Shown here: piece by piece, positions 13,802 to 32,881 of the stretch
Position numbering within the stretch: position 1 is the stretch's first letter
How the letters are laid out: each line of letters starts with the position of its first letter
DNA from: Myxococcota bacterium
Lineage (GTDB): Bacteria > Myxococcota_A > Polyangia > Nannocystales > Nannocystaceae
DNA: 64,000 bases
NCBI GenBank assembly: GCA_039028615.1
Contig: JBCCHT010000002.1
Location: 320,001 to 384,000, forward strand
Direction: 5' to 3'
Made by a program: the position numbers and the translations under genes
The notes under the pieces: model-generated
What the model was told of the DNA's origin: nothing
Seen by the model: the letters and a program-made list of their open reading frames with translations, nothing else
The model's database searches: none

Positions 13802-14202
13802 GGCAGTTCGGTCCCCGATGTGAGGGCGCGGCCTGGAGTTTTTCCTCCAGGAGCCCCCTGAAGGAGGCATCTACCACACTCGGAGCCCCGGCACCGCGCG
13901 CAAGGCCAAGTGCGCGAAAGATGCGGGGGTAGACCCACATCGTGGCTGCACCGTCCGAGTCGGCGCCGTGGCCGACTCAGAGGTGCGCAGGGGCGTCTAT
14001 CTGCCCGCGGACCGAAGTTTCGGGGTCGAGCGCGGCCCGACCCGAAGGGGGGAAGACGCACATTCGAGATCTCCCGCCGATGCCGCTCGATCAACCTGGG
14101 CATAATTCCGGCGCGGCGGCGTTTCCTCCAGGCCCCGTGCCGAATGCCCGTGCCCACGCTCATCCTCCCGACGGCTCAGGACCTCCCGCGAGACCACGGC
14201 CC

Positions 14203-16062
14203 ATGAGCGCGGTCGACCCATCGGGCGCATCGCTGTCCCTCGGTGAGCATCTCGGGCAAGGAGCCGTCGCCACCGTACGCCGGGTCCATGGCCCCGGCGG
14301 GCGGGTCTACGCGGGCAAGCTGCTGCACGAATCCCACGAGCGCGACGCGGCCTCTCGCGCCCGGTTCGCGCAAGAGGCCGAGCTGCTCGAAGGCCTGTCC
14401 CACCCCAACCTGGTCGGCTTCCACGGCCTGGTCGACATCGAGGGTCGGCGGGTGCTGCTGATGGAGCTGGTCGAAGGGCCCACGCTGGCGGAGGTCATCG
14501 CCCGCGAGACGACCCTCGACCCCGCGCGCGTGCAGCAGCTCGGTCGGGGCTTGGCCGCCGGCCTGGCCTACGCGCATCGGGCCGGCATCGTGCACCGCGA
14601 CCTCAAGCCCAGCAACGTGCTGCTCGCGGGCGGCACCGAGCCCAAGATCGCCGACTTCGGCATGGCGCGCGCGACCTCGCTGTCCGGGGTCGGCTCCCAG
14701 GGCCTGACCGTGCTGGGCACGCCCGACTACATGGCGCCCGAGTGCCTCGACCCGCTGGCGGTCGACGCCCGCACCGATCTGTACGCGCTCGGCTGCATCT
14801 TGTTCGAGATGCTCGCCGGGCGCCCGCCGTTTTCTTCGGCCACGCCGCTCGGCTTGCTCAAGGCCCACCGCGACCACGACGTGCCGGCTCTACCCACGAG
14901 CGTGCCCGCGCCCCTGCGCACGCTCGTGACGTCGCTGCTCGCCAAGACCCCGGGCGACCGCCCGCAGGCGGCCGAGTCCGTGCGCGACGCCCTCGATGCA
15001 ATGCTCGACCCCTCGAGCGACGCGGCCGGGTCCACCGCGCTCGCGGTGGCGTCGTCCGCCGCGCCGCCCACCGTCGCCCGCGGTCGCTGTGTCGCCTGTG
15101 GAGCCCCGCTGGTGACCGCGCTCGGCCAGTGCATCGATTGCGGCCACGAGATCGCCCACCTGGAGGCCGGCCGCTGGTCGGTGCTCGTGACCGGGCCGGG
15201 TGAACCCGGCGACAAGCTCGACGCCACCCTGCGCGAGCGCCTGCGCCAGTGGTTCGAGGACAACCCCGAGCTGGGCCTCGAGCCCGCCGACAACCTCGTC
15301 AAGAAGATCCCCCGGGTCCCCTTCCCCATCACCACCAAGGTCTCCGAGCGCAGCGGGGCGAGCTTGGTCCGCGCCCTGCAGCGCCTCGGGCTGGAGGCCA
15401 CCGCCGTCCGGGGCGGGCCCATGGCGTACAAGCCCATGCGAGCCAAGTCGCGCACGCTGATGGGTCGCATGGCGCTCATCATGACGAGCTTCATGAGCGG
15501 CCTGTGGCAGACGGGCTGGGCCGCGGGCATCGTGATGGTGGGCTTGTTCGTCGCGGCCGGGGTCATGGTGGCCAATGCCAACCGCCGGGTGACGCGGCAG
15601 CTCGCCAACAATCGCCAGCCGCTGCCCGAGCCGGTCCGCAAGGCGCTCGAGCAGACCCGCGAGGCCCTGCCCGCGATCCAAGAGCGACGTCATCGCCAAG
15701 GTCTGCGAGCGGTGCTCACCCGCGTGGTCGACCTCGCCCGGGACACCGCCAGCGACGACCCCGAAGCCGCCCAAGAGCTCGTGCAGGCGGTCAATGCCGC
15801 CGTCGCGGCCGCGGCTCGGCTCGACGCTCTCGACCGTGAGCTCGCGGCGATGGACCAGGACAGCGCCACCCAGCACGCCCGCGCGACTCTGCACGCGCGC
15901 GACACCTGGGCCTCGCGGCTGCTATCGCTGACCGCCACCCTCGACACGCTCGCGTCCCGCCGGGCCGCCGCCGGGGCCCGACGGGGGCTCGCCGACGACG
16001 AAGAGACGCTCGATCAGCTGCGTGCCCACGTGGAGGCGCTCGAGGAGGTCCAGAACGCATGA
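14203..16062 (+). CDS. Ser/Thr kinase with Zn ribbon, L7/L12-like domain, TM hairpin and helical C-terminus
   Basis: GQGAVA, AGK, HRDLKPSN, DFG, GTPDYMAPE; CVAC...CIDC; hydrophobic segments; ATG 14203 preferred over the longer ORF start. Confidence 0.88.
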   Translation: MSAVDPSGASLSLGEHLGQGAVATVRRVHGPGGRVYAGKLLHESHERDAASRARFAQEAELLEGLSHPNLVGFHGLVDIEGRRVLLMELVEGPTLAEVIARETTLDPARVQQLGRGLAAGLAYAHRAGIVHRDLKPSNVLLAGGTEPKIADFGMARATSLSGVGSQGLTVLGTPDYMAPECLDPLAVDARTDLYALGCILFEMLAGRPPFSSATPLGLLKAHRDHDVPALPTSVPAPLRTLVTSLLAKTPGDRPQAAESVRDALDAMLDPSSDAAGSTALAVASSAAPPTVARGRCVACGAPLVTALGQCIDCGHEIAHLEAGRWSVLVTGPGEPGDKLDATLRERLRQWFEDNPELGLEPADNLVKKIPRVPFPITTKVSERSGASLVRALQRLGLEATAVRGGPMAYKPMRAKSRTLMGRMALIMTSFMSGLWQTGWAAGIVMVGLFVAAGVMVANANRRVTRQLANNRQPLPEPVRKALEQTREALPAIQERRHRQGLRAVLTRVVDLARDTASDDPEAAQELVQAVNAAVAAAARLDALDRELAAMDQDSATQHARATLHARDTWASRLLSLTATLDTLASRRAAAGARRGLADDEETLDQLRAHVEALEEVQNA

Positions 16063-18077
16063 ATGCCCTGCCCCAACGACTCGGCCTCGAGGTCATCGAA
16101 GGCCCCGCGCGCATCGGCTCCGAGCTTCGCTGGCGGGTACAGCACGAAGGCCGCCCCGCCCTGCTGGCCCAGCTGCTCCCCGAGCTCGCCCACGACCCCG
16201 CCGTACGCCGTCGCTACGTGCGGGACGTGGAGCGACTGCGAGGCCTGGGCTTGGCCGGGCTGGCGCCGACGCGGAAGACCGGGCCCGAGCCGGATCCTCG
16301 CGCTCCCGAGGCGCCGCCGCCGTGGCGCCTGCGCGACGACCCCGAGGGCGAGACGCTCGAACACTGGCTCACCCGGCGTGCACCCGCGCCCGTCGACGAG
16401 GTCGCGCGGCTCGGAGCGGCGCTGGCCGAGCTGGTGCATCGACTGCATGGTCGGGGCGCCGTCGTGCGCAACCTCGACCCCAGCCACGTGGTGCTCGCTG
16501 CCGACGATCGACTGTGGCTCACGGATGTCGGCCTCGCGCGCGTCGACGTGCTCTCCACGCGCACCGCGGCCAGCCTCATCCTCGAGGGCTCGCCCTACAC
16601 CGCGCCCGAGCTGCTCACCGAGACGGTCGTCGACCAGCGGGCGGACCTGTACGGCTTGGGCACGATCTTGTTTCGCGCGGTCACGGGCATGCTGCCCTAC
16701 GGCGACTCGAACTCCCTGCTGCGCCCCACCGAGCCGCCGCCGCGGGCCTCGACCCTCCGCCCGGACATCCCCGCCGGCTTCGATGAACTCATCGCACGCT
16801 GCCTCGACCACGACCCCGCCGCGCGCCCCGACAGCGCCGCACAGCTGGCCGAGATTCTCGGCGGGCGATCGAACCTGCCGTCGCGGGAGGCTCGCGTCCC
16901 CTGCCAGGAATGCGGCACCCCCCTGCGGCCCGGCCAGCGCTTGTGCACCCACTGTGGAAAGCTCGCCGTGCAGTTCGTCCCCGCGACGACCCCCGACGAG
17001 GGGCACGAGATCGTCCTGCGCAAGATCGACGAAGGCGCCGAGGCCCGCGCCAAGCTCGAGCGCATCTTGGGCGCCGTCTCCGACGGGCCGCTACCGCCGC
17101 TGAACTTCGTGGTCGGCGACGCCCGCATGTACTCCAAGGGCGAGCGCAAGGCGTTCATCACCCTGCCCGCGCGCCTGGTCTCGGGCCTGTCCGAGTCGAG
17201 CGCACACGCCCTCAATCAGAGACTGGCCGACGCCGGCCTCCACACGCGCGTCGTGGCCCCGCGAGGGCCCACGGCCGGCTTGGCGCCCCGGGAAAAGCGA
17301 GGGCTCGCCATCGGAGCGGCCGCCTCGGTCGCCGCCATCTTGGGGGCGTTCGTCCTCGCGGTCGGGGAGGCCGGCTTGAGCATGGCCGTGGTCATCGCCG
17401 GCGTCATGACCCTGGTCGCGGCCGCGATCCTGGTGTCGGTCGGCCTCGTGCTGCGCCACCGAGAGAAGCGCAAGAAGAAAGACCCGGTCGTCGCGTTGCG
17501 ACCCACGCCGGCCGCCCTGCCCGCGTCCGATCCCTTGGTGGCTCGACTCGCGGCGCTGCTGACCGGCGACCCGCCGCCCGATCTCCGCGAGCAGGTCGGC
17601 GAGCTCGCCCTGGCCGTGCAGCGGCTGGTGGATCACCGCGCCCACAACCGGGCCGAAGCCGACGAGATCGATGCCGTCACCGCGCCCGTGGCTCAGCTGG
17701 TCTCGCTCATCGAGGGTCAGGTGCAGGCGATCCGCCGTATCGACCTCGAGCTGGGCACGCTCGACGAAGGCGCCCTGGTTCGGGCCCTCGCTGCCGCGGA
17801 AGCCCGCGGAGACGCGCCCGCGGCTCGCGAGACGCTGCTCGAGGGGCTCGACCGCCTCCGTGCCCTCGAGGACGCGCGTGCCCGCCGTTTTCATCGCTTG
17901 CTCGAAGCCACGCACCTCGCCCGCCGCTCGGTGGAGCTCGGCCTCGCGGTGCACGATGGCCAGGCCGAGCACGAACGACATGTCGCCCAGGCCCTCGCTG
18001 CCCTCGAACGAGAGCTGGGCGAAGACGTCGACGCTTCGTCATCTCCCGCGGCGCTGCCCGCAGCCGCGGCCGGCTGA
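16059..18077 (+). CDS. Pseudokinase with the same architecture as the upstream kinase
   Basis: Retains GSPYTAPE and DLYGLG, but HRD is VRN, DFG is DVG, and the Gly loop and VAIK Lys are absent; CQEC...CTHC; two TMs; ATGA overlap with the upstream gene. Confidence 0.85.
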   Translation: MNALPQRLGLEVIEGPARIGSELRWRVQHEGRPALLAQLLPELAHDPAVRRRYVRDVERLRGLGLAGLAPTRKTGPEPDPRAPEAPPPWRLRDDPEGETLEHWLTRRAPAPVDEVARLGAALAELVHRLHGRGAVVRNLDPSHVVLAADDRLWLTDVGLARVDVLSTRTAASLILEGSPYTAPELLTETVVDQRADLYGLGTILFRAVTGMLPYGDSNSLLRPTEPPPRASTLRPDIPAGFDELIARCLDHDPAARPDSAAQLAEILGGRSNLPSREARVPCQECGTPLRPGQRLCTHCGKLAVQFVPATTPDEGHEIVLRKIDEGAEARAKLERILGAVSDGPLPPLNFVVGDARMYSKGERKAFITLPARLVSGLSESSAHALNQRLADAGLHTRVVAPRGPTAGLAPREKRGLAIGAAASVAAILGAFVLAVGEAGLSMAVVIAGVMTLVAAAILVSVGLVLRHREKRKKKDPVVALRPTPAALPASDPLVARLAALLTGDPPPDLREQVGELALAVQRLVDHRAHNRAEADEIDAVTAPVAQLVSLIEGQVQAIRRIDLELGTLDEGALVRALAAAEARGDAPAARETLLEGLDRLRALEDARARRFHRLLEATHLARRSVELGLAVHDGQAEHERHVAQALAALERELGEDVDASSSPAALPAAAAG

Positions 18078-18778: not shown

Positions 18779-20311
18779 TCAATTACCGTGCAAGAGCTGG
18801 TACGCCTGGTTGTGGTTTTCTCGCACGCTGCGGGCCTGAGCTTCGAGACCGTCGTTCGGGAACGGCTGCGGCCTCGGGCTCACCGCAGTCGGTGCGCCCT
18901 TGGTCATGGGCCTCGGCCGTGGGTGGGATTTCTTCTTGGGTCGGCGTTGATGCGAGACCTTGGGCGGCGGCGGCGGAGCGAGGCCCTCGAGCGTGGGCTC
19001 GAGCTCGACCAGGCCGTCGACCAGCCGGGACAGCTCTGCATCGGGCATGTCCTCGAGGAGCGCTCGCGCTTGCGCAATGGTGCTGCCCACCAGCGTCTTC
19101 GCGGCCGGCACCTGACCGGAGCGCGCCATGGAGACCGCCTGTAGCGTGGCGGCGGCAGTCGTGGCCCGGGCGGCAGCCACCGCCACTTCGAGGTCCACGC
19201 CCTCGGCCAGGGCCCCCTCGTCGGCGGTCGCTTTGGCGGACACGAAGGTCCGCTCGACCATGCCCTGGCCCGCCCTCGCGTCGGTGTAGTTGACCACCCC
19301 GTCGAGCAGCTCCACGGTGGCGCCGTCGCGATGGGATCCGATGCCCAGCTTCACCAGCAGGGTCCGCTCTTCGTGCTCGGCCAGGTCGGGGAGCCGCAGC
19401 ACGTAGCCGCGACCGTTTTGGCTCATCCCCTGATGCGTGGAGCCATAGCCCGGCACCTCGAGCACGCTGACCCCGGGCCCCGGGTTGAGCGTCACGGAGA
19501 CCCCCGTCGCGGCGAGCCGCTCGAGCCCCAGCACTTCGTCGCGGAACACGGCGGCGACCATCTCGGGCTCTTCCACGAAGTGAAAGCGTCCGCCCGTGGT
19601 CTGGGCGATGCGACCCAGCAGGGTCTCGTGGAACTCGAGCCCCAGGCCCAGCGTAGTGATGGGCACGCCGACTTGAGCCACGGTTTGGTTCACCGCCGCT
19701 TCGTCGTTGGGCACGCCGTCGCTGACGAGGACGAGGCGATTGATCTCGTACTTGGGCGCCTGCAGCTGCACCTGGTACCAGCCCATCGCGAGGCCCTCGC
19801 TCAGGCTCGTGGTGCCCGAGGCTTCCATGGCCTCGATGGCCTCGACGATGGCCGGCTTGGTCTCGGGCGAGACGGCGGTCGCGGGCACCAGCACCTCCGC
19901 GACCGAGCCGAAGGACACCAAGCTGAAGGAGTCACCGTCGTGCAGATCGTCCAGCAGGGTCAGCGCGGCGTCGCGAGCCTGGTCGATGGCCTCGCCCGCC
20001 ATGGATCCCGAGGTATCGACGACGATGCCGATGTTCGCGGCGGGCCGGGGGACGTCCTCGAGCTCGGGGCTCCGCACCCCGATGCGAACCCAGCGCTCGC
20101 TCGGCGCGTCCGCGGCCACGAAGCGGTTGTCCAGCCGAGATCCGAGCTGGAGCTCGATGGGCTCCACGCCGGCGTCGGGGACCGCGAGCGCTTCCTCGAC
20201 GCCCTGGCCCGGGTCGGGACTCACCGGAGGGTGATGAGCATTGCGCGGAGTACAGGCGGGCATCACAAAGGCCGCCGCAAGGACCAACAGGGATAGGCTT
20301 CGTCGTCGCAT
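18779..20311 (-). CDS. von Willebrand factor A domain lipoprotein (YfbK-like)
   Basis: Signal peptide ending MPAC; MIDAS DTSGSM, GTT and LVSDG motifs. Confidence 0.9.
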   Translation of the reverse strand: MRRRSLSLLVLAAAFVMPACTPRNAHHPPVSPDPGQGVEEALAVPDAGVEPIELQLGSRLDNRFVAADAPSERWVRIGVRSPELEDVPRPAANIGIVVDTSGSMAGEAIDQARDAALTLLDDLHDGDSFSLVSFGSVAEVLVPATAVSPETKPAIVEAIEAMEASGTTSLSEGLAMGWYQVQLQAPKYEINRLVLVSDGVPNDEAAVNQTVAQVGVPITTLGLGLEFHETLLGRIAQTTGGRFHFVEEPEMVAAVFRDEVLGLERLAATGVSVTLNPGPGVSVLEVPGYGSTHQGMSQNGRGYVLRLPDLAEHEERTLLVKLGIGSHRDGATVELLDGVVNYTDARAGQGMVERTFVSAKATADEGALAEGVDLEVAVAAARATTAAATLQAVSMARSGQVPAAKTLVGSTIAQARALLEDMPDAELSRLVDGLVELEPTLEGLAPPPPPKVSHQRRPKKKSHPRPRPMTKGAPTAVSPRPQPFPNDGLEAQARSVRENHNQAYQLLHGN

Positions 20312-20531
20312 CAAAAACGCGTTCCGGGCCCCGAACGCCGGCCGCCATGGCCGGCTTACGGGCAAAGATCCAGACAGTCGGGTTCACGGAACGCACCACC
20401 GCGGGAACCGGCCTGGGCTCCATCACTTTCGCCCCTCCCGCTACGCGTGTTCAGGGATCCGCGGATGGCCGCAGGCCCTCCGAGACCGGTTTGGAGCGTT
20501 GTTCGGGCCCGCGTGATATCGTCGATGACTG

Positions 20532-22448
20532 ATGACGGCATCGTCTGCGGCAGACCAAGCGGGAACGAACCTCGTGTTGGTGTGCTGCGCTCGCGAAGAC
20601 GCCGAGCCCTTGAGCGAGACGCTCAGCGTGCTGCGCGAGGACGGGCTGGAGGTCGAGCTGGTCGAAGGGCTCGACGAAGACGCCAAGCGACTGACCGCGG
20701 TCATCGAAAAGCACGGGGGCGCCGGCCTCTACGTGCTGTGCCGCAGCCCTCGCCTCGGCCGCGAACAGGTGGAAGAGCTGCGCGAGCTGCTGCTGGCCCG
20801 CCACGTCCCCTTCGCCCGCACGCTGACGGTGGCCGTCGGTGGCCGAGGGGCGCTGGCCGATCGCATTCGCTCCGGGCTGCGTCGATCGAGCACGCGGGGC
20901 GGCGGGAGCAGCCGCAGCGCCGCTTCGTCCCGAGGAGCCTCGGCGCGCGCCAGCTCGGGTCGCGTGTCGATCACGCCCACGGACACCACGGAGGACGAAG
21001 AGCCGACGCTCGTGGGGCGCCGCGATGCCCTGGGCACGACCCCGCCTTCGCCTCCCAGACCTCCCGCCAAGCCCCGGCCTCCGTCGGGGACTTCGGCCGT
21101 CAACAAGCGCCCACCCGCGCCTCCGCGCCCGCCCGCCTCGGCCAGCAAACCGCCGGCCCCCTCGAAGCCGCCGCCGCCGCCCGCACCGGATGCCGCGGAC
21201 TCGATGGTGGCCACGGCGACCGAGTCGATGATCGAGGAGATCGAGACCTCGCCCGAGGACACTTCGCTGAGCAATCCGCGGATCTCGATGTCGGACCTCG
21301 ACCTGTCGGACCTCGACGACTCGATCACCGACATGCGCATGCCGGCGGAGGAGAGCACCTCCGAAGGGCAGCTGACCGCACAGATCTCCGGCGACACCGT
21401 GATCGGGCCGATGCCCGCGATGATCACGGGCGACACGCTCACGGGTGAGAAGATCCCGGAAGACTTCCGCAAGAAGATGGCCGCGCTGGGCGGCGTATGG
21501 CCCGAGCCGCGCCCCGCGACGACCGAGCCCGCGCCCGCGCTGCCTGCTCCCGAGTCGACGCCGACCGCCGCCGACTCGGGCGAGGCCTTCGCGCCCTCCC
21601 TGCCGGAGTTCTCCGACTCGGCCGCGCACGAGACCAACCCGGCGGCGGAAGACGTCACTCGACCCGGGTCCTCGGAGGACTCGAACGCGGCCCCGGCTCT
21701 GCCTCCACCGGATGAGGCGGAGGACGTGGCCACGGTACCCGTGCCCGCACTGACCACGCCGAGACCCGTGGTGGCCACGAATAGCTCGCCGCTGGAATCG
21801 ACCGTGCCCACTCCGGTGGTCCAGGCCTCGAACGAGCCCGGCCCCGCACCGGTCGGGCCGTCCTTTGCGAGCAGCTCGGGTTCGCTGCCGAGCTGGCTGC
21901 CGTGGGCGCTGGGCGGAGCCGCCGTGCTGCTGTTGTGCGTGGTGGTGGCGGTCGCCGCGTGGCCCGACGACGAGCCGGACGAGGTCGCCAGCAACGAGGC
22001 GACCTCCGAGCCCAAAGACGACGACGCACCGAAGCCCGAGGCCGACCCGACCCCGGAGAAGAAAGCCGAAGCCGCACCGCCGGTGAAGCCGCCGCCGCCC
22101 AAGACCTACCCGGTGCTCGCCGCGCTGCGCACTCGGCAGGTCCGCGCCCTCGACGTCCTGCTGGTCGCCACCGAGACCTCGAACGCCGACGACCACGCCG
22201 CCGCGAGCCAATACTGCGAGGCGCTGGAGATCGCCGGACTCGGCGGCTGGCGCCTCCCCGATGTGGGCGAGCTACGCTCTTTGAGCGACGCCCAGATGAT
22301 CCAATCGAACAAGTACTACTGGTCGGCCACGGCCGCCGACCTCTTCGGCGACACCCACCTGGCCTGGTACGGGCGGCGCAAGTACGCCAAGCCCCACGCC
22401 AAGGCTGCGCTGACCCAGTGCGTGCGCGGGAGCTCGAGCGACTCGTGA
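20532..22448 (+). CDS. Single-pass membrane protein: TIR-like N-terminus, long disordered linker, TM, Lcl/DUF1566-like C-terminus
   Basis: N-terminal LVLVCCARED...LREDGLEV...LYVLCRS; TM WALGGAAVLLLCVVVAVAAW; C-terminal YCEAL..AGLGGWRLPDVGELRSL...YYWSAT. Confidence 0.8.
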   Translation: MTASSAADQAGTNLVLVCCAREDAEPLSETLSVLREDGLEVELVEGLDEDAKRLTAVIEKHGGAGLYVLCRSPRLGREQVEELRELLLARHVPFARTLTVAVGGRGALADRIRSGLRRSSTRGGGSSRSAASSRGASARASSGRVSITPTDTTEDEEPTLVGRRDALGTTPPSPPRPPAKPRPPSGTSAVNKRPPAPPRPPASASKPPAPSKPPPPPAPDAADSMVATATESMIEEIETSPEDTSLSNPRISMSDLDLSDLDDSITDMRMPAEESTSEGQLTAQISGDTVIGPMPAMITGDTLTGEKIPEDFRKKMAALGGVWPEPRPATTEPAPALPAPESTPTAADSGEAFAPSLPEFSDSAAHETNPAAEDVTRPGSSEDSNAAPALPPPDEAEDVATVPVPALTTPRPVVATNSSPLESTVPTPVVQASNEPGPAPVGPSFASSSGSLPSWLPWALGGAAVLLLCVVVAVAAWPDDEPDEVASNEATSEPKDDDAPKPEADPTPEKKAEAAPPVKPPPPKTYPVLAALRTRQVRALDVLLVATETSNADDHAAASQYCEALEIAGLGGWRLPDVGELRSLSDAQMIQSNKYYWSATAADLFGDTHLAWYGRRKYAKPHAKAALTQCVRGSSSDS

Positions 22449-23122
22449 GCGCCAAGCAAGCTCCGCCCTCCAAGTCGTCCCGCGCCACCGACCCGTCGCG
22501 TCGCGGCCTGCGACTGATGGTGTACGACCGCAGCTGTCGGGGCCGCACCGCCCTGCCCGGGCTCTCGCATGCGTGGTGGGCCGGGGCCAAGCTCTACCGC
22601 ACCATGCGTCGGCTCGACGCCTACGTCGGGGTCGACAGCTGGGAGCAAGGGCTCGAGTTCCTCGCCGAGTATCGCCCCGAAGAGCCCTTGGCCGAGGTGC
22701 AGTACTGGGGCCACGGCAAGTGGGGTGGCGCCCGCGTTCGCCAGCAGATGCTCGATCGCAGCGCGCTCGAGTCGAAGCATCCCCTGCACTCCCGGCTCGC
22801 CGCCGTGCGCGATCGCTTCGTGCCCGACGCCCAGGGCCTTTGGTGGTTTCGGACCTGCGAGACGCTCGGGGCCCGGCCCGGTCAGCGCTTCGCGATGGAG
22901 CTGTCGGACTTTCTCGGCGCACGCGTGGCCGGCCATACCTTCATCACCGGGCACCTCCAGAGCGGCCTGCACACCCTCGCTCCGGGGCAGCGGCCGCAGT
23001 GGTCGGAGGACGAAGGGCTCCGCGAAGGCTCGGTCGAAAAGCCCACGCGGGCGCACTGGTCCAAGCTCCGCGCGCCCAACACCATCACGTGCCTCCGCGG
23101 CACCATTCCCAAGGGCTACTGA
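22445..23122 (+). CDS. Hypothetical protein with DUF4347/caspase-like pattern and His-Cys dyad
   Basis: GTG start overlapping the upstream TGA; EVQYWGHG..G, WWFRTCET.G..GQRF..LS..LG..V.G pattern. Confidence 0.75.
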   Translation: MSAKQAPPSKSSRATDPSRRGLRLMVYDRSCRGRTALPGLSHAWWAGAKLYRTMRRLDAYVGVDSWEQGLEFLAEYRPEEPLAEVQYWGHGKWGGARVRQQMLDRSALESKHPLHSRLAAVRDRFVPDAQGLWWFRTCETLGARPGQRFAMELSDFLGARVAGHTFITGHLQSGLHTLAPGQRPQWSEDEGLREGSVEKPTRAHWSKLRAPNTITCLRGTIPKGY

Positions 23123-23146: not shown

Positions 23147-24142
23147 CTAGCTGGTGCGGGCTCGGCCGGACTGCGATCGCGAGCGGCAGCGGGACTCGCC
23201 GGAGCCACAGCGAAAGCGAACGTGCATGTGGTCGCGGTGGCCATCCCAGTGCTTGAGGATGGGCGGCGTCTCGGACTCGCGGCCGGGCACGCGGAAGTAG
23301 CGGGCGAACTCTTCCTCGCTCAGCTCGCGGCGAGCCAGCGGCCGTAGCAGGCGCTGCAGCCGAATGCTGATGAAGATCTGCTGGACCTCGCCAGTCTCGA
23401 CCAGGGCGCGAATGAGGGCCCAATTGCGCTCGACGTCGAAGTTGTCGGCGTTGGCTCGTTGCCAGCGCTCGTGCTCGAGGCCGTCGCTGAGGATATAGCC
23501 CAGGTCGACGTCGCGACCGGTGCGATGAGATCGATGAGGCGCGGCTCGACCTCCGCGGCGGGCCGAGATTTCACCCACCGAGATCGGCGGCGCGTCGTCG
23601 AAGGTTCGACCATAGCGGGTGAACGCGGTGACCATCGCCTCGATGGCATTGCTCGCGCCAAAGGCCCGAGTCCGTCGCTCGCGGAGCGTCCAGAACGGAC
23701 CCTCGGGCATCGGCTTGCCGTGCTCGAGACGCCCCGAATTCGGAGCGCCCACCGAGCGGGTCGGCTTTTCGTCGGAGGCCCGATACACCCACAGGCGAGC
23801 GCCGGACTGCACCCGCTGCTGCCCGCGAAGCTGTGGGTTGAGCTCCATCAGAGCGCGCTTCTTGATGCCCCAGCGGCTCGCCAGCGCGTCGACGCTCTCG
23901 CTCTCGCCCACCGTCCACTGGATCTCGAGCAACGAAGGCAGCGGCATGGCCTCGACCGCCTCGGCCTCGGCGGCCTCGGCCACCGTTGCCGCCAGAGCGA
24001 CGGTCGTCGGTGCCGGGGGCAGCATGCTCATGGAGGCGGGCTCCGGCACGACCGACTGGCCTCGGACACTGGTGGTGGTCTCGAAACCCGCACCGATGGC
24101 CAACGGCCCTATCAGGGCCAATGCACGAAGGTATCCCCCCAC
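23147..24142 (-). CDS. Penicillin-insensitive murein endopeptidase (MepA/M74-like) with LysM domain
   Basis: LysM-like segment (VGESESVDALASRWG..LMELNP); SVGAPNSGRL, HRSHRTGRDVD, HRDHMHVR. Confidence 0.88.
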   Translation of the reverse strand: MGGYLRALALIGPLAIGAGFETTTSVRGQSVVPEPASMSMLPPAPTTVALAATVAEAAEAEAVEAMPLPSLLEIQWTVGESESVDALASRWGIKKRALMELNPQLRGQQRVQSGARLWVYRASDEKPTRSVGAPNSGRLEHGKPMPEGPFWTLRERRTRAFGASNAIEAMVTAFTRYGRTFDDAPPISVGEISARRGGRAAPHRSHRTGRDVDLGYILSDGLEHERWQRANADNFDVERNWALIRALVETGEVQQIFISIRLQRLLRPLARRELSEEEFARYFRVPGRESETPPILKHWDGHRDHMHVRFRCGSGESRCRSRSQSGRARTS

Positions 24143-26784: not shown

Positions 26785-27744
26785 CTAGCGGCCGGCCGCG
26801 AGCGCCTGGGCGCTGGCCAGGCCCCATGCCCGCATGGTGACGCGGGCGATGACCGAGGTCTGGCTGATGCCGAACGCGATCAGGATCTTGAAGGCGTTGG
26901 CCTGCTCTGCGCTGGGCGCCACCACCCAGTACAGCACCATCAGCCCGAGGCCCACGACACCGAGCCGAACCGTAACCCCGACGATGGCGCCCGTCCGTGC
27001 CCGGCACAGGCTCATCCCGCGCTGGAGGGCCGTCATCGCGGTGCACTCCGGGTCGGCGATGGCCGCCACCTTCGCGTAGTCGACGATGAGCCGGATCGCG
27101 AGCATGAACGCCCACACCACGAGGTACTTGCCCACGATCCACGCCGCATGGACGCGCTCGTCGATGACGTCGCGGTTGTGGTCGGCGACCCAGGCGGTGA
27201 GCCACGGCAGCATTTTCGCCAGCACCACCGCCCACGCGATCCAGCCGACCACGGCCAGGGTCAGCATGCGACCGAAGTGCTGCGCCCCCAGGCGGATCAA
27301 GCCCCGCTCGTCACCGCCGAAGCGGGCGAGCAGGCCTCCCGAGAGGAAGGTCCAGCCCAGCAAGTAGCACAGCCCGGCCACCATCAGCGGGAGCGGCAGC
27401 GCGAACATGGCCCCCGTGACCAGGCCGTCGAGCGCACGCAGGACCGCCCCGATGCCCACGATACCGGCGTCGAAGGTGCCCGCGATGCCCTGCGCCTGCG
27501 CAGAGAACGACGCGTACCACAGGCCGTCCCAGCTGCTCAGGAGGTTGTCGGCGGCCTCGCGGTGACGGAGCGACTGCGCCAGCGTCGATTGCATCGCGCC
27601 CGCCAAGGGCAACGCCAACAACACGCTGAGCAAGTAGGCCGCGCCGACCGAGGTCCAGTGTTCTCGAACCCGAGACCATCCCGTGGCCACCGCCTGCGCC
27701 GCCCCGACGGACGTCGATTGTGATTGTGATCGCGAAGAACTCAT
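26785..27744 (-). CDS. Multi-pass membrane protein of unknown function
   Basis: Several hydrophobic helices; 9 nt downstream of the M1 peptidase gene. Confidence 0.8.
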
Positions 27745-27753
27745 GGCGGTGCC

Positions 27754-29850
27754 TCAGGAGAAGAAGGCGAAGGCTTCCATGCTGTGCTGAACCCAGACCA
27801 TCCACTTGCTCGACCACTTGGTGGCGGCCAGCTCGGCCGGGGCTTCGCGAAGCCAGGCATTGTTGGAGAATTCGGTGTCGAGCACGAGCACGTGCCCCGG
27901 GTCGACGCGCACGCGGTCGACTCGGGCGGGGCGCTCGTAGCGGTAGGTCTGCCAGCGGTCTTCGCCGTCCCAGTGCTCGATGGTCCGCGCTCCGTCGGCG
28001 AAGGTGACCTCGACCGCGACGGGGAAGCGGCCCTCGCCCCAGCGTCGCACGGTGACCACCGACTGCCAGGGGCGCTCGCCAGAGGTCTCTTCGGGGTCTT
28101 GGTCCGCGTGGCCGTGCACCGAGGATGCGCGCCAGCTTCGGACCTCGTCGACCGCGTAGTCGAACACCACCGACTCCTTCCAGACCTGGGCGAAGAACCA
28201 GTCGAGGCGTTGGCCACTGACCAGATCCATCGTGCGGAAGAAGTCCTCAGGTTTCGGGTGCGAGAACGCGAAGCGACGGAAGTAGTGCGTCATCCCGCGC
28301 TGAAAGGTGGGCCAGCCCAGGTAGTTCTCGAGCGTGCGCAGGGTCAGCGCCCCCTTGTCGTAGGAGTTGACGCGATAGCCCCCCGGGCCCGTCTTCCACG
28401 AGTGCCGGGACTGCGGGTCGCGCTTGAGCGCGGAGTGCATGCCCACGTGACGGTCGGCGCCCGCCGTGCGCTCGGGCGGCACGACGGAGGGAAAGGCCAC
28501 GGGAAAAAAGCCCTCGAGGTAGCGCTCGACGTGGGCGTGCTCGGGGAACGCCGCCTCCATCGTGCGTGTGGTCGAGTAGGTGTTGAAGCCCTCGTCGAGC
28601 CAGGCGTGCTCGAACTCGTCGTTGGCGATCATCCCGTACCAGAACTGGTGCCCCGCCTCGTGGACCGTGACCCCCTCGGGCGAGCGGCGCTCTTTGGGGG
28701 ACAGCCAGCGCGTGCCCCCGGTAAACAGCGTCGGGTACTCCATGCCGCCCGTGCCCGAGCGATAGGCCGGGTCCACCACCGTGATGTGCCCGTAGGGATA
28801 GGGCCCCCACCAGCGACCGTAGTGCTCGAGGGCCGCCTCCGTCGCGTCGAAATAGCGATCGCGATGCTCGGCGTGGTCGGGCATCAGCAGCAGGCGCATG
28901 TCGACCGGAGGCAAGCCGGGGGACTCGAAGCGCCGCTCGTGCACCGCGAACTCCGTGCTCGCGGTCCAGGCGAAGTCGTGCACATCGGGCTGCACGAAGC
29001 GATGGGTGGTCTCGCCGCTGCCCTCGGTCGTCTCCGTCTCGCGCCCCGTCGCGCCCACCACCCAGTCCGTAGGTGCGGTGATCGAGACGTCGTAGACGCC
29101 GAAGTCCGAGTAGAACTCGGTCTGGATGAACTGGTGGCAGGCCCACTGCCCGTCGGGCTCGAGTACGCCGACCTTGGGGAACCATTGTGCGGCCAGCAGG
29201 TAGTTCCCGCGCGTCCCCGTCCGCGCGAAGGTCCGCGGCATCTTGGAGGTGAATCGCAGCTCGACCTCGATGGTCTCGCCCGGCGCCACCTCTCGCGGCA
29301 GCGGCACCCGCAGCACGGTGCGATCGTCGGTATTGCCGTCGTCGGGCGAGATGAACTCGGCCCTCGGATGCAGGTCGACGGCCGCGCCTGCTCCCTCATC
29401 CCTCAGACGCAGCTCGTGCACGTCGACATAGGCCCAGTCCTCGGGTCGGCGGTCGTCGTAGCGGTTGCCTCGCTCCCGCGCTCGCCGAAGGAACGAGCTC
29501 CGATCGTTGCGCCACGCGTTGTAGTAGAGGTGGTAGCGCAGCTCGGACGTGGGGTGCTCGGTGATGTTGGTCCACCGCAGCACCTGCTGCCCTTCGATGG
29601 TCTCGTGCTCGGGATCCCACCGCACCTGCATGGTGTAGTTGGCGTTGCGCGGGCTCAGGGGGCCGTCGGGCCACACCATGGGCTCGGCCAACGCATGCGT
29701 GGGGCCGTGGTCGCTCATGCCGGGCACGACGGGTCCGGGCTTGGCCGCCTCGACGGGCGCCGACGCCAACAGGCCCAAGACACCCGACCACATCACGCCC
29801 CATCGCCAGCCTCTTCGCGCATGCCGAGTTGGGCCAAGGGAGGACATCAT
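27754..29850 (-). CDS. Secreted M1 family zinc metallopeptidase
   Basis: Signal peptide; GGMEY, HEAGH and WLDEG (HEXXH-x18-E), YDKG. Confidence 0.93.
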   Translation of the reverse strand: MMSSLGPTRHARRGWRWGVMWSGVLGLLASAPVEAAKPGPVVPGMSDHGPTHALAEPMVWPDGPLSPRNANYTMQVRWDPEHETIEGQQVLRWTNITEHPTSELRYHLYYNAWRNDRSSFLRRARERGNRYDDRRPEDWAYVDVHELRLRDEGAGAAVDLHPRAEFISPDDGNTDDRTVLRVPLPREVAPGETIEVELRFTSKMPRTFARTGTRGNYLLAAQWFPKVGVLEPDGQWACHQFIQTEFYSDFGVYDVSITAPTDWVVGATGRETETTEGSGETTHRFVQPDVHDFAWTASTEFAVHERRFESPGLPPVDMRLLLMPDHAEHRDRYFDATEAALEHYGRWWGPYPYGHITVVDPAYRSGTGGMEYPTLFTGGTRWLSPKERRSPEGVTVHEAGHQFWYGMIANDEFEHAWLDEGFNTYSTTRTMEAAFPEHAHVERYLEGFFPVAFPSVVPPERTAGADRHVGMHSALKRDPQSRHSWKTGPGGYRVNSYDKGALTLRTLENYLGWPTFQRGMTHYFRRFAFSHPKPEDFFRTMDLVSGQRLDWFFAQVWKESVVFDYAVDEVRSWRASSVHGHADQDPEETSGERPWQSVVTVRRWGEGRFPVAVEVTFADGARTIEHWDGEDRWQTYRYERPARVDRVRVDPGHVLVLDTEFSNNAWLREAPAELAATKWSSKWMVWVQHSMEAFAFFS

Positions 29851-31954: not shown

Positions 31955-32881
31955 TCAGTCGCCGAAGACTTCCTCGAGCGTCTTCGCGGTCAGCACCCGC
32001 TCGACCCATCGATCGAGCTGCTCGAGCCCCGCCCCGTGCACGCGCGCTTGCGCGGCCGAGGGCAGCTCGCCGAACTTCAACTGTAGCAGCCGAAGAAGAA
32101 CCCTGGCTTCGCCTTCCATCCGGAGCTCGTCCAGAAAGTCGATCGCCTCGGCTTCGACCTCGGGCTTCATCATGCTCATGATCGTCTCCAACTCCTGCCG
32201 GTAGGCTCTTCCAATATACGTCCAAAATGGCCGAAGTGCTTCGGGGCCGCGCTCGGACCGCAGTTCGATAAACAGCCGGCCCAACCGGTCCCCTCGTTCC
32301 CGGCCGGACAGGCTCCGGGATACCGCAACCAACGCCGCGCGCGACACGACATCGCAGACCGCACGCGCCTGCTCGAAGCGGTCGAGCTGCCGTGGCCCGA
32401 GTTCGAGGACTTCCATCCGCAGCTCCACGTGGGCTCCGCCGTCGACCACGGGCGGGGTGCACAGCTCGGACAACCGCCGCGCCTTGGTCCACCGCCCACC
32501 CGTGTAGAGCAACACCGGGATCACGTACGGCAACCGGTCACGCGGAACGTCTGGCCGCTCGCGATACTGCCGCAGCGCGTTGTTGCAGTACGAGTGCATG
32601 CGCAACGGCATCATCGCGTCCTCGGTGGTCTGGTTTTCCCACAGGCAATAGACCAGTGCGTCCCCTGCCCCACGGACCTTCACGTCGAAGACCAGATCGC
32701 TGAAGCTCGCCTTCAGCTCGGCATCGACATAGCTCCCGTTGATCAGCCGTAGCGTAGGCCAGTCGATCTGCGCCCCGAGCTGGGGCGCCATCGCAACGCG
32801 AAGCACGCCCGCGGCGTGCTCGGGTTTGGACAAAATCTCCTTCAGGAACAGGTCGTGAGGAGGTCGACGGGGAGAGGCCAT
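31955..32881 (-). CDS. Rpn family recombination-promoting nuclease / YhgA-like protein with DUF4351-like tail
   Basis: PHDLFLK, SDLVF, ENQT..D..MPLRM..Y, LP.VIPVLLY; C-terminal LLQLKFGELP...LDRWVERVL. Confidence 0.88.
   Translation of the reverse strand: MASPRRPPHDLFLKEILSKPEHAAGVLRVAMAPQLGAQIDWPTLRLINGSYVDAELKASFSDLVFDVKVRGAGDALVYCLWENQTTEDAMMPLRMHSYCNNALRQYRERPDVPRDRLPYVIPVLLYTGGRWTKARRLSELCTPPVVDGGAHVELRMEVLELGPRQLDRFEQARAVCDVVSRAALVAVSRSLSGRERGDRLGRLFIELRSERGPEALRPFWTYIGRAYRQELETIMSMMKPEVEAEAIDFLDELRMEGEARVLLRLLQLKFGELPSAAQARVHGAGLEQLDRWVERVLTAKTLEEVFGD

Follow-up and report, generated by a model that had tools for sequence, protein, structure and literature searches.

A TIR-Like, Lectin-Fold Membrane Protein Family in Myxococcota and a Caspase-Fold Neighbor of One Member

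The Locus and Its Two Genes

A 64,000-nucleotide stretch of a Myxococcota genome (Nannocystaceae; assembly GCA_039028615.1, contig JBCCHT010000002.1, positions 320,001 to 384,000), hereafter the window, carries two overlapping genes that an initial annotation, made from the sequence alone, had read as a Toll-like receptor (gene 1) and a caspase-fold protease dedicated to it (gene 2). Gene 1 is best explained as an inner-membrane receptor or scaffold of a lineage-specific paralogue family, and that family of TIR-like/transmembrane (TM)/lectin-fold proteins is apparently undescribed; gene 2 is an older, predicted peptidase of many Myxococcota. The reading that we favor, with a probability of roughly 0.55, is that receptor and peptidase have independent functions and are linked at the level of an operon.

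The layout of the locus (Table 1) is largely as first described. Both open reading frames (ORFs) have the coordinates originally given and are chosen by a codon-model gene caller, the GTG start of gene 2 overlaps the TGA stop of gene 1 (GTGA), and all of the motifs quoted for the two proteins are found in their translations. The genes are probably co-transcribed and translationally coupled; a scan found no sigma-70 site or terminator between or after them on their strand, a result that is uninformative for this lineage. The genome (12.3 Mb, 94 contigs) has four copies of gene 1 paralogues, and the closest named relatives are Paraliomyxa miuraensis and Nannocystaceae assemblies, in which gene 2 is ~78% identical. 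Neither the architecture nor the gene pair was found described in the open-access literature, in which supplementary domain tables (PMC8195603, PMC7159879, PMC11135422) could list either.

Table 1. Features of the locus and its surroundings, in window positions.
Feature	Position	Strand	Remarks
Gene 1, single-pass membrane protein, 638 aa	20532..22448	+	same-genus orthologues start at the equivalent Met
N-terminal flavodoxin-like domain, residues ~12-122	20565..20897	+	four strands and four helices; AlphaFold2 pLDDT 86.7
Conserved Cys18 and Cys19, end of strand 1	20583-20588	+	
Conserved Cys70, end of strand 3	20739-20741	+	
Low-complexity linker, residues 123-457	20898..21902	+	predicted cytoplasmic
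Acidic-hydrophobic motif DLDLSDLD, residues 255-262	21294..21317	+	docking motif or candidate Asp cleavage site
Single TM helix, residues 458-477	21903..21962	+	predicted N-in/C-out
Lcl_C/DUF1566-like (C-type-lectin-like) domain, residues 523-638	22098..22445	+	invariant Cys562, Cys630
Gene 2, stand-alone DUF4347/Tce1-like clan CD peptidase-fold protein, 225 aa	22445..23122	+	no TM
Gene 2 His90	22712-22714	+	
Gene 2 Cys138	22856-22858	+	
Gene 2 Arg136		+	two residues before Cys138
LysM + Peptidase_M74 gene	23147..24142	-	convergent; synteny control; start uncertain
Two tandem Ser/Thr kinase genes	13942-18077	+	close upstream of gene 1
vWA-domain protein	18779-20365	-	divergent from gene 1
HExxH protein, then multi-pass membrane protein	26785-29850	-	
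Rpn/PD-(D/E)xK transposase-like ORF	31955-32881	-	judged by eye

A Lineage-Restricted Family of Membrane Proteins

The architecture is not a product of chance: its order of N-domain, TM helix and C-domain recurs in 133 of 170 proteins with the N-domain, 130 of the 133 having a clear TM helix, and most of the other 37 look like fragments. A profile search with the N-domain gave 306 representatives (at 50% identity); among the best 150, in which the architecture was checked, the C-domain was again at the end of 113, and the rest are for the most part fragment-like. The claim of one TM was borne out, gene 1 having a single hydrophobic segment from residue 458 with a mean hydropathy of 2.5, and gene 2 none. 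The C-terminal assignment to DUF1566/Lcl likewise held up: Lcl_C matched 20 of 20 members (best E 2.3e-9), although on gene 1 itself PF07603 reaches 31.3 bits (E 2.8e-7), below its curated cut-off of 34.9. This ectodomain matched PDB 8q4e weakly, and gave only weak NCBIfam matches, to two adhesin models. Its invariant cysteines presumably occupy the positions of the C-type-lectin disulfide. In Legionella Lcl, as set out in PMC11162425, the C-terminal domain is C-type-lectin-like, trimerises and binds glycosaminoglycans, and is free of disulfides, whereas gene 1 keeps its Cys pair and has a TM anchor and a cytoplasmic domain in place of the collagen stalk.

Positive net charge is greater on the N-terminal side of the TM in 112 of 133 members, which, together with the TM helix and the Lcl_C domain with its Cys pair, favors a cytoplasmic N-terminus and a periplasmic C-domain. 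The ectodomain that had been described as sensing the outside would indeed lie beyond the inner membrane, but, the cell being Gram-negative, probably in the periplasm and 45 residues from the membrane.

The Pro/Ser/acidic linker is present as noted, 335 residues long with 18% Pro, 13% Ser and 13% Asp+Glu, and is punctuated by short conserved motifs, i.e., EEPTLVG, DLDLSDLD and I-x-G-D/N-T (twice). Counts of such motifs in the 133 full-length members report conservation rather than independent origins, because 25 close orthologues are among them: the DLSDLD pattern is found in 34 linkers (at most 1 in shuffles), and WADSL in 12 and RDVV in 36, both far above shuffles, each of the three clustering in one part of the receptor tree (FastTree; deep branches weak). 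Asp/Glu-(x)-Thr-hydrophobic-hydrophobic was counted 85 times, shuffles giving 13 on average, and such Thr motifs are candidate kinase and FHA sites. The linker of the longest paralogue (~1100 aa; L003:2844-6398, G000:C27) is rich in E/D-(x)-T-V-V repeats and may be a multi-phosphothreonine array.

The N-domain was detected in 46 of the 73 genomes sampled within the bacterial family, with one to nine matches each, and in none of the 249 outside genomes sampled; it was also absent from all 23 genomes of three genera within the family. The other subfamilies keep to their own genomic settings across genera no less firmly than that of gene 1: one follows hsp20-degP, and others are placed between hbd and SpoIID genes, close to purK/uvrA, or next to GAPDH. 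A sister subfamily of gene 1 lies directly behind DegP/HtrA in 14 loci, usually in an NTP-transferase-hsp20-degP block (sister-subfamily loci: L001, at G000:C9:42000-56000, L167, L182, L183, L227-L232 and L234-L237), and in five other loci of the block degP is missing; the degP neighbor may reflect a link to envelope stress or cleavage of the receptor in the periplasm. Another subfamily converges on the SpoIID gene, as the gene 1 pair does on the LysM-M74 gene, and two receptor subfamilies thus adjoin peptidoglycan-acting enzymes.

The N-Terminal Domain: TIR-Like, but Most Likely Not an Enzyme

The N-domain had been described as ~110 residues of beta/alpha structure resembling the start of TIR_2. 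The flavodoxin-like alpha/beta fold is present in the model, with the correction that it has four strands only, and the TIR likeness, seen by profile, is weaker than claimed. In hhalign comparisons the match to TIR was 85.7% over 91 columns, against 14.1% for B12-binding and 5.5% for receiver (REC) domains, while a reversed control gave 0.6% and column shuffles at most 1.3%. Pfam TIR_2 (PF13676) matched 7 of 20 members weakly (best E 0.0016) and not gene 1 itself, and Response_reg matched 0 of the 20; of the six feature rows listed by Atlas, five bear a TIR name, with every score below 0.9. Structure search, on the other hand, preferred receiver-like domains, TIRs being found only as weak Foldseek rows (E 0.008-0.03) and not in the top 50 by Z, and the N-domain profile, run against the sequences of solved structures, matched mainly designed Rossmann-type proteins.

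The residues expected of an active TIR have largely gone. The Phe-x-Ser-Tyr of TIR domains is Val-x-Cys-Cys in the gene 1 family, the catalytic Glu column holds Glu in 12% of 145 members versus 21 of 25 control TIRs, and the Trp before it is absent, compared with 19 of 25 controls having it. A conserved TIR NADase was therefore rejected, and the N-domain is, as far as sequence comparison can tell, most likely an enzymatically dead, shortened, TIR-derived domain. Two findings weigh on the other side: the TIR profile signal resides in the first ~33 residues of the domain and is gone when these are removed, and gene 1 has Glu82, as do 30 of 49 subfamily members, most of them from a single genus. 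Canonical TIR_2 domains are found elsewhere in the lineage, with 26 and 24 matches in two genomes of one genus (G048, G049) and 5 in the source genome.

The structural preference raises the alternative that the N-domain is a degenerate module with a receiver-like or other flavodoxin fold, perhaps a Cys redox or metal site, in an envelope tether or stress sensor. Receiver domains have an acidic pocket after strand 1 and a phospho-acceptor Asp ending strand 3. A canonical receiver was rejected, since those positions are Cys-Cys-Ala and Cys-Arg-Ser and the REC match is as low as given above. The cysteines are well conserved (Cys18 70%, Cys19 97%, Cys70 92%), and the ends of strands 1 and 3, where they lie, are the usual ligand site of the fold, so that a redox or metal site may be considered; Cys70, however, is Val in 5 of 49 subfamily members in which Cys19 is unchanged. 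With the hhalign, TIR_2 and Atlas results also against it, a module of non-TIR descent is quite unlikely, and we retain the dead TIR-derived domain.

With TIR_2 and the animal Toll/interleukin-1 receptors the family shares profile similarity over strands A-D and the series TIR, TM, extracytoplasmic ligand-binding domain. It differs in its four strands, the altered motif and catalytic positions, and a periplasmic sensor, and in an N-terminal TIR-like domain followed by a 335-residue disordered linker; Toll receptors have the opposite polarity.

Gene 2, a Predicted Clan CD Peptidase

The caspase-type fold proposed for gene 2 was confirmed by Foldseek and VIA-align, whose top rows are Tce1, caspases, CHAT, clostripain and legumain. 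His90 and Cys138 each lie just past a core strand (residues 82-88 and 132-135, respectively), as the initial annotation had it, and both are invariant in two alignments (105 of 105 and 99 of 99 homologues). DUF4347 (PF14252) scores 21.5 bits (E 2e-4), under its curated cut-off of 24.6, and Atlas gives 0.97; among the matches listed, 6 of 120 gene-2 homologues have a precomputed DUF4347 domain. Sequence and profile searches of solved structures (PDB) with gene 2 found nothing. In caspases and metacaspases the residue two before the catalytic Cys lines the S1 pocket; Arg136, invariant in 99 of 99 homologues, stands at that position, which makes an acidic P1 plausible for the predicted peptidase.

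Gene 2 was found as a single copy in 65 of the 73 family genomes and in 19 of the 249 outside genomes, and we read it as an older, cytoplasmic, predicted His-Cys peptidase of many Myxococcota. Its nearest relatives are the Pseudomonas aeruginosa DUF4347 putative cysteine proteases Tce1 (PA0256) and Tce2, and clan CD at large (clostripain, CHAT, legumain, caspases). From these it is set apart by five near-invariant Trp, the Arg at Cys-2 and, in a weak search, the near absence of fusions. The only longer homologue found in that search (P0293) has a PGAP1/lipase-like alpha/beta-hydrolase domain fused ahead of the peptidase part; in several Polyangiaceae-related loci the gene before gene 2 likewise encodes an alpha/beta-hydrolase.

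That gene 2 might be, like Tce1, a cargo effector of type VI secretion, with gene 1 unrelated or its immunity partner, is suggested by this kinship. Identity to Tce1 is 15%, though, and the gene-2 family profile finds no PDB sequence; gene 2 is conserved and Hcp-independent, as Hcp is missing from several near-complete family genomes carrying gene 2 and was found in only 1 of the 19 outside genomes. Cargo status was rejected, and this is the least probable of the readings considered. The substrates of DUF4347/Tce1 proteins are given as unknown in PMC13323088. As a compact, conserved, stand-alone relative of these proteins, gene 2 would be convenient for defining the specificity of the family.

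Are the Two Genes Coupled?

The linkage predicted for other genomes exists: the pair is adjacent in 27 genomes, i.e., in all genomes of five genera (g1, g2, g3, g7, g17). It has a single origin, however, and gene 2 mostly occurs without the receptor. The adjacency label changes once on the gene-2 tree (quick IQ-TREE, 99 rows, support 71; deep branches weak), none of 43 paralogue loci has a gene-2 homologue nearby, and at least 37 of the 65 family genomes with gene 2, like 19 of 19 outside genomes, have it apart from any such receptor. Of the 38 family genomes that have gene 2 but not the adjacency, no receptor N-domain was detected in 20, only other subfamilies are present, elsewhere, in 17, and in one the locus is cut by a contig end (flanks checked in nine of the 17 and in the cut one). 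In the best 80 of 300 gene-2 loci, gene 1 is directly upstream in 21, and the named loci of Nannocystis, Plesiocystis, Enhygromyxa and Polyangiaceae are without it; the upstream neighbors of non-adjacent copies have nothing in common with gene 1, being pssA-like, truA, alpha/beta hydrolase, LysR, PDH E2, thymidylate kinase and kinase genes. The genomics thus do not favor a dedicated receptor-caspase pair.

The constancy of the pair where it occurs was set against a background, obtained by comparing the source genome with two genomes of other adjacency-bearing genera (400 kb of each). Of the tight co-directional pairs with orthologues, 26 of 36 and 34 of 42 had stayed together; for convergent pairs the counts were 2 of 17 and 4 of 25. 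The retention of gene 1 with gene 2 is therefore ordinary for an operon pair. The convergent M74 gene is the more unusual companion: of the 22 adjacent loci examined, 21 have it, and of 76 others none does, its stop lying 24 bp from that of gene 2. Distance correlations of the two gene-1 domains over 13 loci were 0.77 and 0.71 with gene 2, and 0.85 and 0.84 with M74.

Several observations nonetheless speak against independence. Some tight pairs of the background are themselves true functional operons, and a match to it is no proof of unrelatedness; a gene-1 orthologue is directly upstream of gene 2 in 27 of the 27 genomes having one; the two ORFs overlap or sit within ~100 bp throughout; and, apart from one unplaced row of the receptor tree, DLSDLD is seen in the gene-1 subfamily alone. 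The adjacency, the overlapping ORFs and the motif also speak for a rival reading, that the older peptidase was adopted in the five genera as a receptor processor, cutting the acidic linker (e.g., after Asp in DLSD) and releasing the TIR-like domain as a signal. Linker and peptidase would both be cytoplasmic, the predicted acidic P1 would suit the motif, His170 is fixed in 23 of 23 gene-2 rows adjacent to gene 1 and rare in others, and the sister subfamily also stands behind a protease, DegP. Against such a recruitment are the single origin of the adjacency, co-divergence no higher than that of the M74 control, and the conservation of gene 2, which is just as strong where no receptor was detected. 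Moreover, one adjacent genus has DLxGVLD in place of DLSDLD, and the WADSL of paralogues without gene 2, equally acidic-hydrophobic, has the look of a docking helix rather than of a cleavage site. We hold recruitment to be possible, but on the low side.

A broader version would make the family a bacterial Toll-like receptor class, with a non-enzymatic TIR adaptor and a periplasmic lectin fold, that is regulated by proteolysis, its paralogues paired with different proteases: periplasmic DegP for one subfamily and a cytoplasmic, acid-specific, caspase-like gene 2 for that of gene 1, where DLSD cleavage would free the TIR-like domain. This we regard as doubtful; if true, it would be a receptor-to-caspase signaling route in a multicellular predatory bacterium.

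Envelope Signaling or Immunity

The favored reading, of a receptor family and an independent peptidase, can be put as a tentative sequence of events. Gene 1 would insert with its N-terminus in the cytoplasm and its disulfide-stabilised lectin-fold domain in the periplasm, the architecture being observed and the orientation suggested by the charge bias and Cys pair. The ectodomain may bind an envelope ligand (a glycan, peptidoglycan fragment or protein) and then cluster, by analogy with Lcl, while the dead TIR-derived domain and the linker motifs would offer docking sites, probably phosphothreonine sites, to cytoplasmic partners. The output would be envelope or contact signaling and not NAD+ depletion, the family members being most likely non-enzymatic scaffolds. 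Gene 2 would have come to sit behind this one paralogue once, its main job being independent of the receptor.

A working analogy, with no homology claimed, is to myxobacterial GltJ-type proteins (ZnR-linker-GYF, then a membrane receptor module; PMC11135422), which likewise have small cytoplasmic interaction domains and a long motif-bearing linker before the membrane module. The domains themselves are different; the receptor family may work somewhat like the GltJ-type proteins.

The initial annotation had suggested an innate-immunity-like or contact-sensing module. On an immune reading, an outside ligand would trigger TIR NADase signaling and caspase-like cell death against phages or competitors. 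Precedent exists in that predicted conflict systems of bacteria combine TIR, CLec and caspase-like domains, the CLec being periplasmic in some (PMC10907252, PMC8195603), and gene 1 does have Glu82. The reading fits poorly with the rest of the evidence: the catalytic TIR residues are not conserved in the family, PADLOC gave no match for either full protein, the locus is in every genome of the five genera, always at one site and surrounded by housekeeping genes, and ectodomain and N-domain are equally conserved (mean identity over 14 loci 51% each). It is very unlikely. The fixed neighborhoods, the absence of hypervariability in the ectodomain and the lack of a template repeat or PADLOC match suggest core signaling genes rather than defence islands.

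The closest of the conflict systems are CLec/FGS sensors diversified by diversity-generating retroelements (DGRs), in which, according to PMC10907252, lectin-fold sensors join TIR, CHAT or STAND effectors in multicellular bacteria, sometimes with periplasmic CLec. Here, by contrast, no second copy of the ectodomain DNA was found in the genome, the single reverse transcriptase is on another contig (C16), and an NTPase or MoxR partner was not seen among the genes flanking gene 1; a DGR target was rejected.

Most of the bacterial TIRs that have been characterised are NADases of defence systems or effectors aimed at a host. The present family, being stable and expanded, would show an independent bacterial Toll-like layout, with a TIR-derived domain as pure adaptor in everyday envelope signaling.

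Flanking Genes

The pair is flanked upstream by the divergent vWA protein and two Ser/Thr kinases, and downstream by the convergent LysM-Peptidase_M74 gene and a TetR gene. The tandem kinase genes recur there in several related loci, and the product of each has hydrophobic segments near its C-terminus and a CxxC pair resembling a zinc ribbon. The vWA-domain protein has a lipoprotein-like N-terminus, and its position is kept in the closest relatives only. Farther downstream are a large, secreted-looking HExxH protein (aminopeptidase-like by eye), a multi-pass membrane protein and an ORF that resembles an Rpn/PD-(D/E)xK transposase-like protein.
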